In this document: positions 6,266-62,843 of the stretch, piece after piece | How positions within the stretch are numbered: the first letter of the stretch is position 1 | How the letters are laid out: each line of letters begins with the position of its first letter | Notes under the pieces: model-generated | Databases searched by the model: none | The model's input: only the letters and a program-made list of their open reading frames with translations | What the model was told of the DNA's origin: nothing | Translations under genes and position numbers: made by a program | Assembly (NCBI GenBank): GCA_963783305.1 | Contig: CAWAMW010000015.1 | Location: forward strand, 32,001 to 96,000 | Length of the DNA: 64,000 nt | Source: an uncultured Gemmatimonadales bacterium | GTDB taxonomy: Bacteria; Gemmatimonadota; Gemmatimonadetes; Longimicrobiales; RSA9 | Direction of reading: 5' to 3'

Positions 6266-7858
6266 CTACGGCGCGATGGCGTGAAAGGCGAGGCTCTCCT
6301 CGCGCTCCTCGGCGTGCTGAAGGCCCCAGCGGCTGCTGAACAGGATGAGCGGACGCTCTCTGGCGTCGAACACCAGCAGGCGCCCCTCCCCGCGCGCGAC
6401 TCGCCGAATATCGGGCTCCGGCCCCACCACCCAGCGGGCGTGGGTGTACGGCAGGCGCTCGAGCCGGGCCTTGGCGCCGTACTCGCCCTCGAGCCGGTGG
6501 AGAAGCACGTCGAACTGGAGCATCCCCACCGCACCCACAATGGGCGTATGCCCGGCCTGGATGTCCTCGTAGAAGACCTGCGCCGCCCCTTCCTCCGAGA
6601 GCTGCCGGAGCCCTGTATCCAGCTGTTTCCGCCGGAGCGGGTCCTCCGTCCGGATGCGAGCGAAATGCTCCGGGCTGAAGCGAGGGATCCCGCCAAAATG
6701 GATGTCACCGTTGGCGGAAAGTGTGTCCCCGATCCGGAGCTGGCCCCGGTCGTGGAGCCCGATCACATCCCCCGGCCACGCCTCTTCGACGGCCGTCCGG
6801 TCCTGCGCCATGAACTGCTGAGGCTGCGCCAGCCGGACATTCTCACCCGTCCTCGTGTTCTCAACCTGCATTCCGGGCTCGAACCGACCCGAGCAGATCC
6901 GAAGGAAGGCGATCCGGTCGCGGTGGCGCGGATCCATGTTCGCCTGGATCTTGAAAATGAAACCGGTGAAGGCCCCGTGCTCGGGCAGGATCGCCTCGCC
7001 CTCGTCGGTCTCCCGGGGAGCGGGACGCGGCGAGTACTCGAGGAAGTGCCGGAGGAGCGGCTCCACACCGAAGTTCGTGAGCGCGCTGCCGAAGAATGTG
7101 GGCGATAGTTCGCCCGCCTCTACGGCGGCCGGGTCGAATTCGGCACCCGCCAGCTCCAGCAGCTGCAGCTCTTCCTTCACGCGCTCCAGCACTTCGGCGG
7201 GCACGCGCTCGGCCACGCGAGGATCATCCAGTCCCCCCTCCAGCACCTTCGCTCTCCTGGCGCCATGGTCACCGCCCTTTTCGAACAGGCGAACCACGTC
7301 CTCCATCCGGTCATACACGCCAAGGAACTCGTTGCCGTGATGGATCGGCCAGGTGATAGGGTAGCACCGGATCCCGAGATCGCTCTCCACGTCATCGAGC
7401 AGCTGGAGCGGGTTCTCGCCCGCCCGATCGCTCTTGTTGACGAAGGTGAAGATGGGGATCCGACGGAGCTTGCAGACCTCGAAGAGCTTTCGCGTCTGCT
7501 CTTCCACACCCTTCCGGTTGTCCAGGAGCATGATGGCGCTGTCGGCGGCCACCAGGGTGCGGTACGTGTCCTCGGAGAAATCCTGATGCCCCGGAGTGTC
7601 CAGGAGGTTGATCCGATACCCCGAGTAGTCGAACTGGAGGACGCTGGAGGTGACGCTGATCCCTCGTTCCTTCTCGAGCTCCATCCAGTCCGAGGTCGCG
7701 TGGCGCTTGGCCCGCCGGGCCTTCACCGACCCCGCCAGGTGGATGGCGCCGCCGTACAGCAGCAGCTTCTCCGTCAGCGTCGTCTTGCCCGCGTCCGGAT
7801 GGCTGATGATGGCGAAGGTCCGCCGTCGGTCGATCTCTTTCTGGATTGTGGCCGTCAT
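6266..7858 (-). CDS. prfC: peptide chain release factor 3
   Basis: RRRTFAIISHPDAGKTTLTEKLLL, DWMELEKERGISVTSS, DTPGHQDFSEDTYRTL, FKIQANMDPRHRDRIAF. Confidence 0.98.
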   Translation of the reverse strand: MTATIQKEIDRRRTFAIISHPDAGKTTLTEKLLLYGGAIHLAGSVKARRAKRHATSDWMELEKERGISVTSSVLQFDYSGYRINLLDTPGHQDFSEDTYRTLVAADSAIMLLDNRKGVEEQTRKLFEVCKLRRIPIFTFVNKSDRAGENPLQLLDDVESDLGIRCYPITWPIHHGNEFLGVYDRMEDVVRLFEKGGDHGARRAKVLEGGLDDPRVAERVPAEVLERVKEELQLLELAGAEFDPAAVEAGELSPTFFGSALTNFGVEPLLRHFLEYSPRPAPRETDEGEAILPEHGAFTGFIFKIQANMDPRHRDRIAFLRICSGRFEPGMQVENTRTGENVRLAQPQQFMAQDRTAVEEAWPGDVIGLHDRGQLRIGDTLSANGDIHFGGIPRFSPEHFARIRTEDPLRRKQLDTGLRQLSEEGAAQVFYEDIQAGHTPIVGAVGMLQFDVLLHRLEGEYGAKARLERLPYTHARWVVGPEPDIRRVARGEGRLLVFDARERPLILFSSRWGLQHAEEREESLAFHAIAP

Positions 7859-7936
7859 AGCCCTGAATGGTCGCGCCAACCGGGCCAGGATTCAAGGGCA
7901 GGGGTCCGACAGTCACGTCCGGGCGCTGCTCCGGGA

Positions 7937-9942: not shown

Positions 9943-9957
9943 CGGCAATCCTGATGC
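9943..9957 (+). promoter_or_regulatory. sigma54-like -24/-12 promoter motif upstream of the transposase-like ORF
   Basis: CGGCAATCCTGATGC; GG at 9944-45 and GC at 9956-57, canonical spacing. Confidence 0.4.
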
Positions 9958-10011
9958 CGCCCATGCCCTTTCAGCCATTCCCGTGCCCCGCCGGGGAGCA
10001 CACACTCGCGC

Positions 10012-10857
10012 ATGGCCAACGACCTCCTTTCCACAGCAGCCGCGATTTCGTCGCGGAGCTGCCCACGATGCGCCTGTCCGCGCAGCCACCGCTGGGGACG
10101 ATTCTCGAACCGGCAGCGGTATCGGTGCCTCGGCTGCCAACGGACGTTCAGCACGTTTACCGGCACGGCGCTCCATTATCTGAAGAGGATCGATCGGTGG
10201 CCAGAGTTCTGCCTCGCGATGCAGGGAACGGAGACCATCCGAAGGACCGCGGTCCGGCTGGATATCCATCGTGACACCGCCTTCCGCTGGCGGCACCGAT
10301 TTCTCGCGACTCTGGGTCGCGGCGAGTCGGTGCTTTTGTCGGGAAACGTCGCGGCAGGAATGATCCGGTTCAGGTACACCCGAAAGGGCGCCAGAGAGCC
10401 CGGCCCCGAAGCCATGGGTGGAGTGACCCGAGGAGATGTCCAGGCATGGGTCGCACTGGCACGGGACCACCGGGGTGCCGCCATCAGCGCAGTCACGATC
10501 GCCCCCGGCATCGGCGTGACCCACCTCGTCGAGGCGCTCACGGACCGTGTAGCGCCGGGTGCCGTGCTCCGAAGCCGCGAGGGACCCTACTCCTGGACGG
10601 CCATCTGCGCTCGGCGCATGCGGCTGCGGTTCGAGTCTTTGCCGCGTCACAGACAGTCGCCGCACGACCCGGAGCAGATCGCTCTCTATGCGCTCCGAAT
10701 CCGAAAATGGATGGTCCGGTTCCGGGGCGTCGCGACCCGGTACCTGGCGCACTACCTCGTCTGGTTCCGCGCAGCCGATGCCGGTTGGCGGACGGATCGC
10801 TGGGACTGGTCGGCCGTCGCTCCCGGCGTCGGTGGGGGAATCGAACGGGGAGAGTAG
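10012..10857 (+). CDS. IS1595/ISXO2-like transposase derivative lacking catalytic residues
   Basis: Zn ribbon CPRC...RQRYRCLGCQRTFS, HTH IHRDTAFRWRHRFL and C-terminal RFRGVATRYLAHYLVWFR are retained. The expected VEADET, xxDG and HIQNVN segments read VAAGMI, RSREG and HDPEQI. Confidence 0.8.
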   Translation: MANDLLSTAAAISSRSCPRCACPRSHRWGRFSNRQRYRCLGCQRTFSTFTGTALHYLKRIDRWPEFCLAMQGTETIRRTAVRLDIHRDTAFRWRHRFLATLGRGESVLLSGNVAAGMIRFRYTRKGAREPGPEAMGGVTRGDVQAWVALARDHRGAAISAVTIAPGIGVTHLVEALTDRVAPGAVLRSREGPYSWTAICARRMRLRFESLPRHRQSPHDPEQIALYALRIRKWMVRFRGVATRYLAHYLVWFRAADAGWRTDRWDWSAVAPGVGGGIERGE

Positions 10858-11027
10858 AAGCGTCGAGCCGGCCATCGTGGCTTCCGCTCCGCGCGCCCCC
10901 CCGGGTGCGCAGGGTGTCCGTCCACAGGTTCTGCCGGACGGTAGATCCAGGGGGTGGATCGCCACCCTCGTTCGTGCCCGCTATTGTTCGGACCGCGGAC
11001 GGCGTCTTTCGCTGCTAATATCGCTGT

Positions 11028-11170
11028 TTGTCAGCGGGAATTGTGGGCCGGCAGCAATATCGGGGGAGCGGTCGGGACGAAGGCAGAGTTCAGGGGGGCG
11101 GCCCCGGATTCTCAGCGCCTGCCGCACATTCCTCTACGCGCCAACAGTTCCTGCCGACAATCTCAGAGGG
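11028..11170. repeat. inverted-repeat-bounded element (MITE/REPIN-like), copy 1
   Basis: TTGTCAGCGGGAATTGTGGG (11028-47) and CCAACAGTTCCTGCCGACAA (11141-60) are 16/20 complementary; the same motif recurs at 28201-28288. Confidence 0.7.
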
Positions 11171-11222: not shown

Positions 11223-11555
11223 TCACCGACCCGCGGGGTCTTCTTCCCTTATCATCACGAGCATCATCTTGAACTCCACCCGCGCCTCCAAGCCGTGAGG
11301 CACACTGGCGGGCAGCGTCATCGTCTCGCCCTTCCGGACGGTGTGCGGAGTCCCTCCCACCCTTATCTCCGCCTCCCCGTCGAGGATCACGACCAGGGCC
11401 TCATACGGAGAAGTATGCTCCGTCAGCCCCTCGCCTTCCCCGAACGCGAAGAGCGTAACGTTGCCACCGCGCCGACCTAGAATCTTACGACTCACCACCG
11501 ACCCGGGCTGATACGATACCAGCTCCTCCAGCACGTTCACATCGATATCACTCAT
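11223..11555 (-). CDS. cupin domain-containing protein
   Basis: VTLFAFGEGEGLTEHTSP...LPASVPHGL cupin motifs. Confidence 0.9.
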   Translation of the reverse strand: MSDIDVNVLEELVSYQPGSVVSRKILGRRGGNVTLFAFGEGEGLTEHTSPYEALVVILDGEAEIRVGGTPHTVRKGETMTLPASVPHGLEARVEFKMMLVMIREEDPAGR

Positions 11556-11673: not shown

Positions 11674-11699
11674 CGTGAGGTCGAGCGCTCGACCTCACG
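11674..11699. promoter_or_regulatory. perfect 26-bp palindrome in the cupin/S9 peptidase divergent intergenic region
   Basis: CGTGAGGTCGAGCGCTCGACCTCACG, just downstream of a TATATT -10-like hexamer. Confidence 0.45.
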
Positions 11700-11770
11700 T
11701 CTGGGATTGCCGGAGCCCCGCCCTGACTCCATGTTCTCGGCAGGTAACCTCCCGAAAGGAAAATCTCGCC

Positions 11771-14005
11771 ATGCGATCAGCTCTCCGCGGGCTCCCCTTC
11801 CTGATCCTTATCACAGCCTGTGCCGGGAGTCGCGTCGGCTCCGGTGCTGGCGTTCCGATCTCCTCCCGAATCGTGGACCAGTCGGTCGACCGCGTCACTG
11901 CGGCCGACTACTCGCGCGCAGAACGCTTCCTGCCTGCCAACGTCTCGGGTCTGGTCCTGCACGAACCGAGGGAGATCTCCTGGGTCGGCGGTGGGGATCT
12001 CCAGTACCTGACCTTCAGCGAGGCGGGCATCGAGCGAGTCCTGGTCGATCCGGCGACGGGGACAGTGGAGCGAACCCTCGTCGGATCGCCCGCGGACACG
12101 GCGGCCGGAGGGAGTGCGCCGGGGATCCCGGCCCCTGACGGCGATGTGGACCGATCCATGGTGGTCTCCCCTGATGGATCGTTCGGGGCCTTCCGTCGCG
12201 AGCACGACCTCTGGATACGAGAACTGCAGACGGGGGCCGAGCATCGTCTGACCGAGGGGGGAACGGCGGAATTCGGATACGCCACGAACAACGCGGGCTG
12301 GGTGCGAAGCGACCGCCCCGTTCTGCGCTGGTCCCCCGACTCACGCCGGATCGCGACGTTCCGCCACGACGCCCGTGGTGTCGGCGAGATGTACCGCGTG
12401 TCCACGAACGTGGGACACCCCACGCTGGATGCGTGGGCGTACCCGCTCCCGGAGGACACGGTGATTTTCCGGATCGAGCGGCTCGTCATTGACGTGTCCG
12501 ACCCGTCCGCACCGCGGGTGGTGGAGTTCAACATGCCGGCGGATCCGCACCGCTCGTCCGTATGCGATCACGTGTACTGCGACGGAACGTTCACCGACGT
12601 GGAGTGGTGGCAGGACGGATCGCACCTGGCGTTCGTATCCTCCTCTCGCGACCACAAGCGCGCGACACTGCGTGTCGCGGATGCGGAAACGGGAGCGGTG
12701 CGGACGGTGCTTGAAGAGCGGGTCCCGACCTTTTACGAATCCGGTCACAACGCCTACAACTGGCGCGTGCTGCCGGAGAGCGACGACGTGATCTGGTATT
12801 CACGCGAGAGCAACTGGGGGCATCTCTACCTGCACGACCTGCGTACGGGTGATCGCAAGCACGCGGTCACGGCGGGCGATTGGAACGTCCTCGAGGTGGT
12901 CCGGCTGGACTCCCTCTCCCGCACCGCGTGGTTCATCGGCAACGCGCGGGAGCCGGGCGATCCCTATTTCGAGTACCTGTACCGCGTCGGGCTCGATGAC
13001 GGAGAGGTGATGCTCCTGACGCCGGACAGCGCTATGCATGAGGTCTCCCTTTCCCCGGATGGCCGGTATTTCGTGGACACGTACTCCACGCCCGTGAGCC
13101 CTCGGGTCACGGTTCTGCGGGACGCGTGGACAGGGGAGGTCGTGCAGCCGCTCGAGCGCGCCGACGCATCCCGCCTCTACGCAACCGGTTGGCGGCCGCC
13201 GGTCCCATTCTCCGTCACTGCCCGCGACGGCGTCACACCGCTCCACGGGCTCCTCTACCGTCCGACCTCCTTCGATTCGTCCAGGACATACCCGGTGATC
13301 AACTATATCTACCCGGGACCGCAGTCTGGAAGCGTGGGGACCCGGGGCTTCAGCCCTTCACGGCGAGATCACCAGGCGGTAGCGGAGCTCGGGTTCGTCG
13401 TCGTCACATTGGACGCCATGGGTACGCCAATGCGGTCCCGCAGCTTCCACGAAGCGTACTACGGCGACCTCGGTGACAACGGGCTGCCCGACCAGGTGTC
13501 CGCGATACGGCAGCTGGCATCACGGCACGCCTGGCTGGACCTGGACCGGGTGGGGGTTTGGGGCCACAGCGGGGGCGGATTCGCCGCCGCCGGGGCGATC
13601 TTCCGGTATCCTGACTTCTACAAGGTGGCGGTGAGCGAGGCCGGCAACCACGACAACCGCAACTACGAGGACGACTGGGGCGAGAAGTGGCACGGCCTCC
13701 TGCAGGCGCGACACGACGGCGGCACGAGCTATGACACCCAGGCGAATCAGCTCCTGGCCGCCAATCTCAGAGGGAAGTTGCTGCTGGCGCACGGCCTGAT
13801 GGACGACAACGTGCCGGCCTCCAACACGCTCCTCGTGGTACAGGCGCTGATCGAGGCAGACAAGGATTTCGACCTGATCGTATTCCCCGAAGCCCGGCAC
13901 GGCTTCGCCATGCACCCGTACATGATCCGGCGTCGCTGGGACTACTTCGTGGAGCACCTGCTAGGCGCAGAGCCCCCTACGGACTACGCGATCGGCGAGT
14001 ACTAG
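11771..14005 (+). CDS. S9B family dipeptidyl peptidase IV-like lipoprotein
   Basis: Lipobox ITAC; DPPIV N-terminal propeller; GHSGGG, DDNV and RHGF catalytic triad motifs. Confidence 0.92.
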   Translation: MRSALRGLPFLILITACAGSRVGSGAGVPISSRIVDQSVDRVTAADYSRAERFLPANVSGLVLHEPREISWVGGGDLQYLTFSEAGIERVLVDPATGTVERTLVGSPADTAAGGSAPGIPAPDGDVDRSMVVSPDGSFGAFRREHDLWIRELQTGAEHRLTEGGTAEFGYATNNAGWVRSDRPVLRWSPDSRRIATFRHDARGVGEMYRVSTNVGHPTLDAWAYPLPEDTVIFRIERLVIDVSDPSAPRVVEFNMPADPHRSSVCDHVYCDGTFTDVEWWQDGSHLAFVSSSRDHKRATLRVADAETGAVRTVLEERVPTFYESGHNAYNWRVLPESDDVIWYSRESNWGHLYLHDLRTGDRKHAVTAGDWNVLEVVRLDSLSRTAWFIGNAREPGDPYFEYLYRVGLDDGEVMLLTPDSAMHEVSLSPDGRYFVDTYSTPVSPRVTVLRDAWTGEVVQPLERADASRLYATGWRPPVPFSVTARDGVTPLHGLLYRPTSFDSSRTYPVINYIYPGPQSGSVGTRGFSPSRRDHQAVAELGFVVVTLDAMGTPMRSRSFHEAYYGDLGDNGLPDQVSAIRQLASRHAWLDLDRVGVWGHSGGGFAAAGAIFRYPDFYKVAVSEAGNHDNRNYEDDWGEKWHGLLQARHDGGTSYDTQANQLLAANLRGKLLLAHGLMDDNVPASNTLLVVQALIEADKDFDLIVFPEARHGFAMHPYMIRRRWDYFVEHLLGAEPPTDYAIGEY

Positions 14006-28200: not shown

Positions 28201-28288
28201 CCCTCTGGGATTGTCAGCAGGAACTGTGGGCAGGGTGAACGGGCCCCCCGCATGTCCGCATGGGTCCAACATTTCCTGCTGACAATCT
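28201..28288. repeat. inverted-repeat-bounded element (MITE/REPIN-like), copy 2
   Basis: TTGTCAGCAGGAACTGTGGG (28211-30) and CCAACATTTCCTGCTGACAA (28266-85) are 18/20 complementary; the reverse complement of 28201-30 matches 11141-70 at 27/30. Confidence 0.75.
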
Positions 28289-28342
28289 ACGAGGATTCGG
28301 TGGGCCGACCGGGGCTGGCTTCTGCCCTCCCCTCTCCACCGA

Positions 28343-29101: not shown

Positions 29102-30310
29102 ATGTCCACCGGCCGTATATACGTCAAGCACGCTCTGACCCGCTCTCTGGCGCGGGTGCTCCTCAGCACGGCTTTCCTCGGACCGACCTTCCTCGGACCG
29201 ACCTTCCTCGGACCGACGCTCCTGGGATCCGCACTGCTCATCACCGCGCCGGCGCGGGCGACCGCGCAGGGCGTAGAGGTGACCGTCGGGGACGTGGGCC
29301 TGGGGATCGGGCCGGTACCCCGGATCGACGGGCTCCGCGTGAACTTTCGCGACGACTATCGCCTGGAGAGAGTCCGTGGCGTCAACGCCACCATCTGGGC
29401 TCCCCATGATGACATCCAGGGGGACGTCTACGGGCTCGCGCTCGGCCTCCCCCTCACCGGCGCGCGTAACCTTGCAGGCCTCGGACTGGGCGCGGGCATC
29501 GCCGTTCACGGCGACTTTCGAGGCATCGCGGTTGCTCCCATCGGCATGGGTAGTGGCGGCGACCTCGGCGGCGTGGTCATAACCGGGATCGGTGTGGGCG
29601 CGGGAAACGACGCGCACGGGATCGTCGTGGGCGGGATCGGCGTCGGCGCGGGAAACCGCCTGTCGGGTATCGCCGTCGGAGGAGTGGGTGTCGGAGCCGG
29701 GAACAGCGCCACGGGAGTACTGGTGGGGGGCGTGGGAGCGGGCGTCGGCAACAGCATGCGCGGGATCGCCCTGGGCGGCCTCGGCGCGGGTGTGGGCAAC
29801 AGCATGACGGGCCTCCTCGTCGGCGGCCTCGGCGTGGGAACGGGCAGCGACCTCACGGGGATCGGAGTGGGCGGCCTCGGGGTCGGCGTCGGCAACCAAA
29901 TCACCGGAATCGCGCTCGCCGGGGGGGGGATCGGCGCGGGCAACGGGATAAAGGGCATCGCTCTGGCCGGCCTTGGCATCGGGTCGGGCGGCCACCTCCG
30001 CGGCCTCTCGGTGGCAGGGCTGGGCATCGGCGCGCCCCGCATCACCGGCCTCGCCGCGGCGCTGGCCGTCGGTGGGCAGGACATTCACGGGCTGGTGCTC
30101 GCCCCCGCCTATTTCCGACTGGAGGAAGACGGGCAGCTTCGGGGAGCCGCAGTGAGCGCGTTCAATGATTTACGGGGGGAGCAGCGCGGACTGGCGATCG
30201 GCCTCGTCAATATCGCCCACGAGCTTCATGGGCTGCAGATCGGCATCATCAACATCGCCCGGAACAAGGATTCGTTCCCCATCATGCCCATATTCAACTA
30301 CCACCCGTAG
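29102..30310 (+). CDS. secreted glycine-rich repeat (beta-solenoid-like) protein
   Basis: Signal peptide ending ARATA-Q; about 11 tandem 16-aa repeats such as GIAVGGVGVGAGNSAT; ends GLQIGIIN...MPIFNYHP. Confidence 0.8.
   Translation: MSTGRIYVKHALTRSLARVLLSTAFLGPTFLGPTFLGPTLLGSALLITAPARATAQGVEVTVGDVGLGIGPVPRIDGLRVNFRDDYRLERVRGVNATIWAPHDDIQGDVYGLALGLPLTGARNLAGLGLGAGIAVHGDFRGIAVAPIGMGSGGDLGGVVITGIGVGAGNDAHGIVVGGIGVGAGNRLSGIAVGGVGVGAGNSATGVLVGGVGAGVGNSMRGIALGGLGAGVGNSMTGLLVGGLGVGTGSDLTGIGVGGLGVGVGNQITGIALAGGGIGAGNGIKGIALAGLGIGSGGHLRGLSVAGLGIGAPRITGLAAALAVGGQDIHGLVLAPAYFRLEEDGQLRGAAVSAFNDLRGEQRGLAIGLVNIAHELHGLQIGIINIARNKDSFPIMPIFNYHP
29174..29218 (+). repeat. 15-bp tandem repeat x3 (FLGPT) in the signal-peptide region
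   Basis: TTCCTCGGACCGACC twice exactly, plus a third copy differing at the last base. Confidence 0.9.
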
Positions 30311-62700: not shown

Positions 62701-62843
62701 CGGACCAGGTTCCATATTCCACTTTACGCAGTTCGGGCCCCCAAGCACGGGCAGCGCCGCGGACCGCGGCAGGGAAGGATCAAGGTCGGGCCGGCCATCA
62801 GCATAGCTGAATGGGTCGAAAGTGGAATATGGAACCTGGTCCG
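62701..62843. repeat. element bounded by perfect 25-bp inverted repeats (MITE/REPIN-like)
   Basis: CGGACCAGGTTCCATATTCCACTTT (62701-25) and its exact reverse complement (62819-43), 93-bp spacer, between convergent genes. Confidence 0.85.

Follow-up and report, generated by a model that had tools for sequence, protein, structure and literature searches.

What becomes of a transposase gene when its catalytic residues are lost, yet the gene stays intact? One such gene, a derivative of the IS1595 family, lies in the stretch of DNA analysed here. The stretch comprises 64,000 nucleotides from an uncultured Gemmatimonadales bacterium and is called the window below; the genome it comes from is G000, and other G numbers likewise denote genomes. 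A preliminary description, made from the letters alone, had proposed that the transposase was exapted as a DNA-binding protein which recognises repeats nearby, under sigma54 control. This is supported in part: the loss of residues, a clade, selection, synteny and matching repeats are all found. The sigma54 control is not supported. The features involved are collected in Table 1.

Table 1. Features of the locus and its surroundings, in window positions
Feature	Position	Strand	Basis or remark
Release factor RF3 gene, upstream synteny marker	6266..7879	-	order as in G005, G032
Sigma54-like string CGGCAATCCTGATGC, judged chance, outside the system	9943..9957	+	78 genome matches, 1/39 loci
IS1595 (ISPna2-type) transposase-derivative gene, triad lost, 281 aa	10012..10857	+	ORF, profile, alignment, model
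Four-Cys zinc ribbon (C17, C20, C39, C42)	10060..10137	+	NF050000 and NF048018 above cut-off
Helix-turn-helix (HTH), residues 76-103, with TxFRWRH	10237..10320	+	model helices, weak HTH_23 match, conservation
Catalytic position 1: G116 replaces D	10357..10359	+	alignment to active relatives
Catalytic position 2: E190 replaces D	10579..10581	+	register uncertain by one residue; R189 in another alignment
Catalytic position 3: A224 replaces N	10681..10683	+	register uncertain by one residue
Left-type arm, gene-adjacent doublet	11019..11048	-	PWM 22.8 bits
Right-type arm, gene-adjacent doublet	11140..11170	+	PWM 19.3 bits
Convergent cupin gene, synteny marker	11223..11555	-	PF07883; downstream flank common to G002, G005
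S9 peptidase gene, downstream synteny marker	11675-14005
Left arm, orphan doublet	28201..28231	-	intergenic, HlyIII-family gene / membrane-protein gene
Right arm, orphan doublet	28265..28294	+	PWM

The gene and the loss of its triad

The reading frame has no internal stops, and the four cysteines, TAFRWRHRFL, ALARD and RFRGVATRYLAHYLVW that had been reported in it are all there. Descent of the gene from IS1595 is clear. The IS1595 transposase model NF033547 matches with E 3.8e-15 and 56.4 bits, where the model cut-off is 75; PF12762 does not match. A structure model of the protein, built from a 95-sequence alignment, has a pLDDT of 88.5 and puts the HTH helices at residues 76-83 and 87-103. 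Its top fold matches are retroviral integrases, Mos1, ISCth4 and Sleeping Beauty, all with modest scores (E from 3.5e-4, TM about 0.3). Given these integrase- and DDE-type matches, the RNase H-type core is kept. A sequence search for solved structures resembling the protein gave no match.

The closest relatives belong to a subgroup which we take to be ISPna2-type, with signature DDN/GGCnnTG. Active ISPna2-type relatives were found in Massilia, Methyloglobulus and Marinobacter, and plasmid matches carry the names ISAma5 and ISOar1. D-D-N columns and GGC ends are indeed observed in the active relatives.

At these three columns the window protein has G116, E190 and A224, the last right after HDPEQI. 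The alignment thus bears out the suspected loss of catalytic residues, and does so across the family. A protein search with the window protein gave 415 matches; among the best 120, which were aligned, the first D is kept in 16, the second D in 4 and the third-position N in none, and no row has both D's together. A profile search added 122 proteins. Overall, D-D-N is present in 2 of 242, and both of these branch with active elements. A second alignment was made against a profile of active proteins only, and its 310 rows are partly redundant. It has the first D in 34 rows, the second in 39 and the N in 4, with at least two of the three residues in three distinct proteins.

The strongest result to speak against one clean loss comes from G002, whose ortholog of the window locus (L008, the same as P0054; L236:273-1049) aligns as D-D-N in two aligners. 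This alignment needs a one-residue insertion, no E follows the first D, and there is no match to PF12762. Going by its sequence, this protein would be the best natural candidate for residual activity. The first D also survives in several subclades. Given such survivors at the first two positions, the triad decayed piecemeal, and some of the spread may predate its death.

The string CGGCAATCCTGATGC, just ahead of the gene, has the spacing GG-N10-GC, and RpoN is encoded in the genome. The degenerate sigma54-like pattern, however, has 78 matches in that genome, and it is absent upstream of the other 38 of the 39 homologous loci; the proposed promoter is not supported.

Relatives, selection and position

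The triad-less Gemmatimonadota proteins lie on one side of a single branch, with support 98/95 in a tree of 26 sampled rows and 99/99 in a tree of 30; both trees use subsampled rows and a single-matrix model, and have no true root. This outcome favours the preliminary reading. The alignments, trees and repeat counts include three rows (L013, L030, L193) that come from the unpublished G021; none of the conclusions hinges on these alone.

Homologues from this clade are present in 22 of 36 genomes of the same family, and in none of 24 genomes from two sister families. Presence across the family is patchy. The nearest homologues carry Gemmatimonadota names, which assigns the host to that phylum. 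Outside the family, 250 genomes of the phylum yield two more strong matches, of which one is active and one triad-less. Genomes hold 1-8 matches to the triad-less clade, at many loci. G000 has a single copy plus a paralogue on contig C16 (G000:C16:184633-185845), which is 40% identical to the window gene, likewise triad-less, and has a repeat type of its own; the preliminary description had missed it. Near-identical gene copies at unrelated sites are not found in G000, and G080 and G095 are the possible exceptions to this absence. No IS1595 match in the G000 genome exceeds the cut-off. At G000:C6:185673-185855 there is a broken fragment whose parent IS1595 element was from another subgroup.

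The gene is under purifying selection. Eight close syntenic pairs have a dN/dS (NG86) of 0.16-0.23; for six distant pairs, which include the window gene and whose dS is near saturation, it is 0.28-0.39. For the window gene itself it is 0.32 against G005 and 0.37 against G002. All these values are well under 1. None of the 51 match rows, from 61 genomes, has an internal stop; four weak fragments carrying stops turned up in a separate search. Within the clade the zinc, HTH and C-terminal motifs are 90-100% conserved while the catalytic columns are lost, and the zinc-ribbon cysteines are kept in 96-100% of 248 non-redundant members. The residues specific to the clade are all in the N-terminal DNA-binding part, and none are in the RNase H-type core.

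The gene is also inherited vertically, at a fixed locus. All 10 distinct pairs with at least 67% identity share flanking genes. The window order of RF3, TonB-C protein, gene, left-right doublet, cupin and S9 peptidase is repeated in G005, and in G002 on the assembled side only. In G032, which is of another genus, a gene of this kind lies between the same RF3 and S9 markers. This means that the locus is common to two congeners and a member of a second genus. The gene was not found at the corresponding, rearranged locus of the congeners G001, G003, G004 and G006, and one G032 gene that was looked for in its congener G067 is absent there. Identity of the window gene to its orthologues is 39-42%, against 62-72% for the cupin.

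A gene for a 91-aa protein without a Pfam family (window:9540-9815, minus strand) stands divergent from the transposase-derived gene; it occurs in 10 of 72 family genomes, with 70-81% identity within the genus.

Repeat arms and dispersed sites

Every gene has kept inverted repeats whose sequence type is particular to it. Arms of one locus have 168 non-consensus letters in common, where the expectation is 55. The position weight matrix (PWM) for these repeats was trained on 53 sites from other genomes. On G000 it gives 13 matches at 15 bits, where the reversed genome gives 1; from 18 bits upward the counts are 9 and 0. Eight of the G000 sites are credible: the window type accounts for four (11.0-11.2 and 28.2-28.3 kb), the C16 type for the other four. 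The related repeats that had been noticed next door and at 28.2 kb are of the window gene's type, and they co-vary with the gene.

As had been observed, there is no left repeat upstream of the window gene; none is found even at a PWM score of 8. The left-type arm is downstream instead, paired with a right arm, so the gene sits outside its own left-right pair, where most relatives are arranged left arm, gene, right arm. The layout of the window is repeated in G005 and G002. Across loci, the pair may enclose the gene or stand before or after it, and there are tandem arrays with a period of 50-63 bp. Just outside a left arm in G032 there is a 9-bp tandem array of about twelve units (L290:3900-4030).

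In origin the arm is an ISPna2-type end. In active controls the ends start with GGC, and 38 of 73 pairs have an 8-bp target duplication. Triad-less pairs have none (0 of 31), and a search at offsets 0-13 in 65 triad-less pairs found no duplication above shuffles. The old terminal bases, GG included, drift in triad-less arms, and 94% of these arms have a T at -3, outside the old end. Doublets are oriented outward, as in MITEs. Other MITE features (homologous interiors, ends at the repeat tips, target duplications) are absent from them, and in seven genomes the interior of one doublet is no more alike to that of another than background.

In folding, the 28.2-kb doublet has z scores of -2.6 and -2.8, and the gene-adjacent doublet a weak -1.4 to -1.6. 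G-U mismatches in the arms number 40 and 45 by strand, with no strand bias that would point to single-strand pairing. Three other repeats in the window are a perfect 25-bp inverted repeat with a 93-nt spacer (62701-62843), unrelated to the arms, and, within one long ORF, a 15-bp tandem repeat in the signal-peptide region (29160-29219) and 48-bp Gly-rich repeats (29628-29915).

The sites make up a dispersed system that extends across the family, which the preliminary description did not see. Among 73 family genomes, at least 3 sites are found in 33 of the 42 with an IS1595-family match, versus 3 of the 31 without; since the genomes are related, this test overstates the association, and a small number of the 42 have matches to another IS1595 subgroup only. 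Where arm-pattern matches are common, genomes have 4-49 of them, often clustered near the gene. All 10 orphan loci of G032 are within 110 kb of a gene of their own type; G067 and G000 agree with this, and clustering is looser in G017, G066 and G068. No sites are found in the 58 kb of G067 that are syntenic to the missing G032 gene. The unpublished G085 does not fit this association: it has 45 sites, yet the family profile finds no gene there.

Orphan doublets have counterparts at orthologous sites in G000/G005, as for the one at 28.2 kb, and in G081/G035; only the arm is conserved. Between the congeners G032 and G067 sites have been gained or lost, and types are species-specific. One of the gained or lost sites adds 30 nt in frame close to the start of a gene, and another is a same-length replacement inside a coding region. 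Where G000 carries the C16 gene, G032 has an empty doublet. A C16-type orphan doublet lies between convergent genes at C16:326740-326825, 141 kb from the C16 paralogue.

Three genomes show signs that copying has happened recently. Gene ends in G080 and G095 are identical over 121-141 bp but continue into different spacers and arms; since assembler overlaps are just as long, the cause may be duplication or conversion of gene bodies, or else strain variation. About ten arms of G063 are inside a larger repeat that extends beyond the arm on both sides. At contig ends of that genome (L358-L371), arms are within a repeat family of at least 400 bp, 70-95% alike, that breaks the assembly. No transposon-like ends were found at these signs in the three genomes, nor did a search of them with an active protein find a helper. 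The 73 family genomes as a whole yielded no active ISPna2-type helper: their only IS1595 matches of about 200 bits have D-D-H or D-D-E triads and fall in another subgroup. Within the phylum, G181 has one active ISPna2-type element whose end is similar.

What the protein may do

The catalytic residues are lost, yet the gene is intact, in place, under selection and accompanied by matching repeats; it therefore likely encodes a protein that the host keeps for binding and looping its arms. We put the probability at roughly 0.55 that the gene is a sessile, selected, triad-less IS1595 derivative whose product would bind DNA sequence-specifically and loop pairs of its own arms of about 30 bp. The zinc ribbon and HTH would recognise the arm, a role that these types of domain also have in IS1, and the RNase H-type core and C-terminal helices would hold an oligomer together. 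Inverted doublets and the arrays of about 58 bp could then be paired or cooperative binding sites. Arms would be paired as in a transpososome, without cutting. The likely benefit would be local control of transcription, or of chromosome folding, around the gene; InsA-like self-repression is among the possible forms of such control. No regulon is evident, since the genes around it vary from locus to locus. New arms would most likely come from recombination or template-switch copying between nearby sites and not from transposition, with selection keeping arms in step with the protein.

The gene/repeat system as such is real, selected and apparently undescribed in print; a literature search that had most subscription journals outside its coverage found no published description of it. 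A more elaborate picture can be offered only tentatively. Here a system resembling RAYT/REP would have arisen from a DDE transposase that does not cut, with genes and 30-bp sites co-evolving as lock and key. The dead protein would give rise to further sites, and on rare occasions to copies of itself, no more than tens of kilobases away. This copying would be driven by synapsis and need no DDE chemistry, and it would mark out a local chromosome domain.

Local looping or repression is ranked first here, followed by self-copying, mobilisation in trans, defence and decay. Self-copying means that the element perpetuates itself without DDE chemistry: the protein captures nearby DNA on bound arms and provokes repair or template switching, which copies the arms, and rarely the gene, in cis. 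Selection would then come from copying and not from a benefit to the host. We consider this unlikely, but it does account for one triad-less clade at many loci with 1-8 matches per genome, for the site differences between G032 and G067 with their species-specific types, for the insertion and replacement inside genes, for the empty G032 doublet, and for recent copying in G063, G080 and G095 where no active helper was found. However, the genes are stationary over species and genus distances, so copying alone is too slow for a dN/dS near 0.2. The concentration of clade-specific residues in the DNA-binding part also tells against it, and the G080 and G095 junctions, equal to assembler overlaps, may be strain variation or gene conversion.

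It is quite improbable that the sites are a non-autonomous IS and MITE family, mobilised in trans whenever active ISPna2-type transposases pass through, while the dead protein serves as an end-binding helper or brake. Multi-copy IS are often absent from metagenome assemblies. The descent of the arms from ISPna2-type ends, the outward-facing doublets and the G181 element are in favour as well, and the IS1 transposase works in trans on DNA bordered by IS1 ends (PMC12903888). The eroded terminal GG, the lack of duplications, the mutually unrelated doublet interiors, the existence of single arms, and the restriction of the stronger IS1595 matches to another subgroup all point the other way.

Defence against incoming ISPna2-type elements is very improbable. 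The dead protein would occupy the ends of such elements or poison their transpososome, and the host's arms would be autoregulatory sites or decoys. Its end-binding domains are intact, no active ISPna2-type element was found in the 73 family genomes, and InsA represses IS1 through binding both ends (PMC12903888). However, genomes without the gene are likewise without active elements, and the arms diverge per gene, with gained determinants outside the old end, so that no external target is tracked. Finally, an ordinary, functionless decaying IS remnant can hardly be right: low identity compared to the cupin and patchy presence would fit, but dN/dS (0.16-0.39) and motif conservation largely refute it, as do 51 rows free of stops, the selective loss of catalytic columns, and arms that are conserved where spacers are not.

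Comparison with known systems

IS1595 elements carry a zinc finger at the N terminus and produce an 8-bp target duplication (PMC8101967). The window gene has the zinc finger; the triad, gene-enclosing repeats, duplication and near-identical copies are not found. As in ISPna2-type elements there is a zinc ribbon, an HTH, an RNase H-type core and a C-terminal RFxGVATxYL motif, as well as ends of about 25 bp with the same inner motif and, in most relatives, a unit of about 1.0-1.1 kb with the arms around the gene. Unlike the active ones, this family has lost the triad, the conserved terminal GG and the 8-bp duplication. Its arm is extended about 5 bp outward, it is sessile, it has orphan arms and arrays, and the window gene is outside its own arm pair.

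RAYT genes (TnpA-REP) with their REPs and REPINs are low-copy and vertically inherited, with their own short flanking repeats and dispersed, mostly extragenic doublets (PMC5581495). Their maintenance is described as unexplained, and RAYT as an IS200-related tyrosine transposase for which nuclease activity is reported. The window family similarly has a sessile low-copy gene, with flanking repeats that recur elsewhere as doublets. Its protein however has a DDE fold without triad and is not an IS200-related HUH tyrosine transposase, and its arms are IS ends. With another fold and no triad, the window family is not a member of RAYT/REP.

The nearest functional precedent is InsA of IS1, a non-catalytic product with zinc finger and HTH that binds both ends and represses (PMC12903888). 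The window protein is likewise a non-catalytic transposase product with such domains, and its binding is predicted. InsA is encoded by the N-terminal frame of an element that is still live, whereas the window protein has the full-length fold, is immobile, and has sites beyond the element.

Catalytically dead, domesticated DDE transposases are known in eukaryotes, for example PiggyMac-like partners (PMC6143343). These have also lost catalysis and retained fold and host selection. They differ in being eukaryotic and of other superfamilies; limited descriptions of them, on which this comparison draws, include no cognate family of end-derived sites. The window gene shares the intact frame, purifying selection and vertical inheritance at a fixed locus of domesticated transposases generally.

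Known bacterial domesticated transposases with dispersed repeats, that is RAYT/REP, have retained their nuclease, and their persistence still awaits an explanation. The window family would be a second, independent case, in which repeats and selection are kept and the triad is gone. This separates binding from cutting, and thereby makes the question of persistence testable. Dozens of natural protein-site pairs that differ in specificity would show how the zinc-ribbon/HTH module of the IS1/IS1595 group reads DNA. In addition, triad-less genes are annotated as IS1595 transposases, which inflates counts of mobile elements.

Two Bacteroidales genes, L055 and L077, form a second pair of intact IS1595-like genes without a triad. 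They branch among active elements and represent an independent loss, which suggests that the route to such genes recurs.
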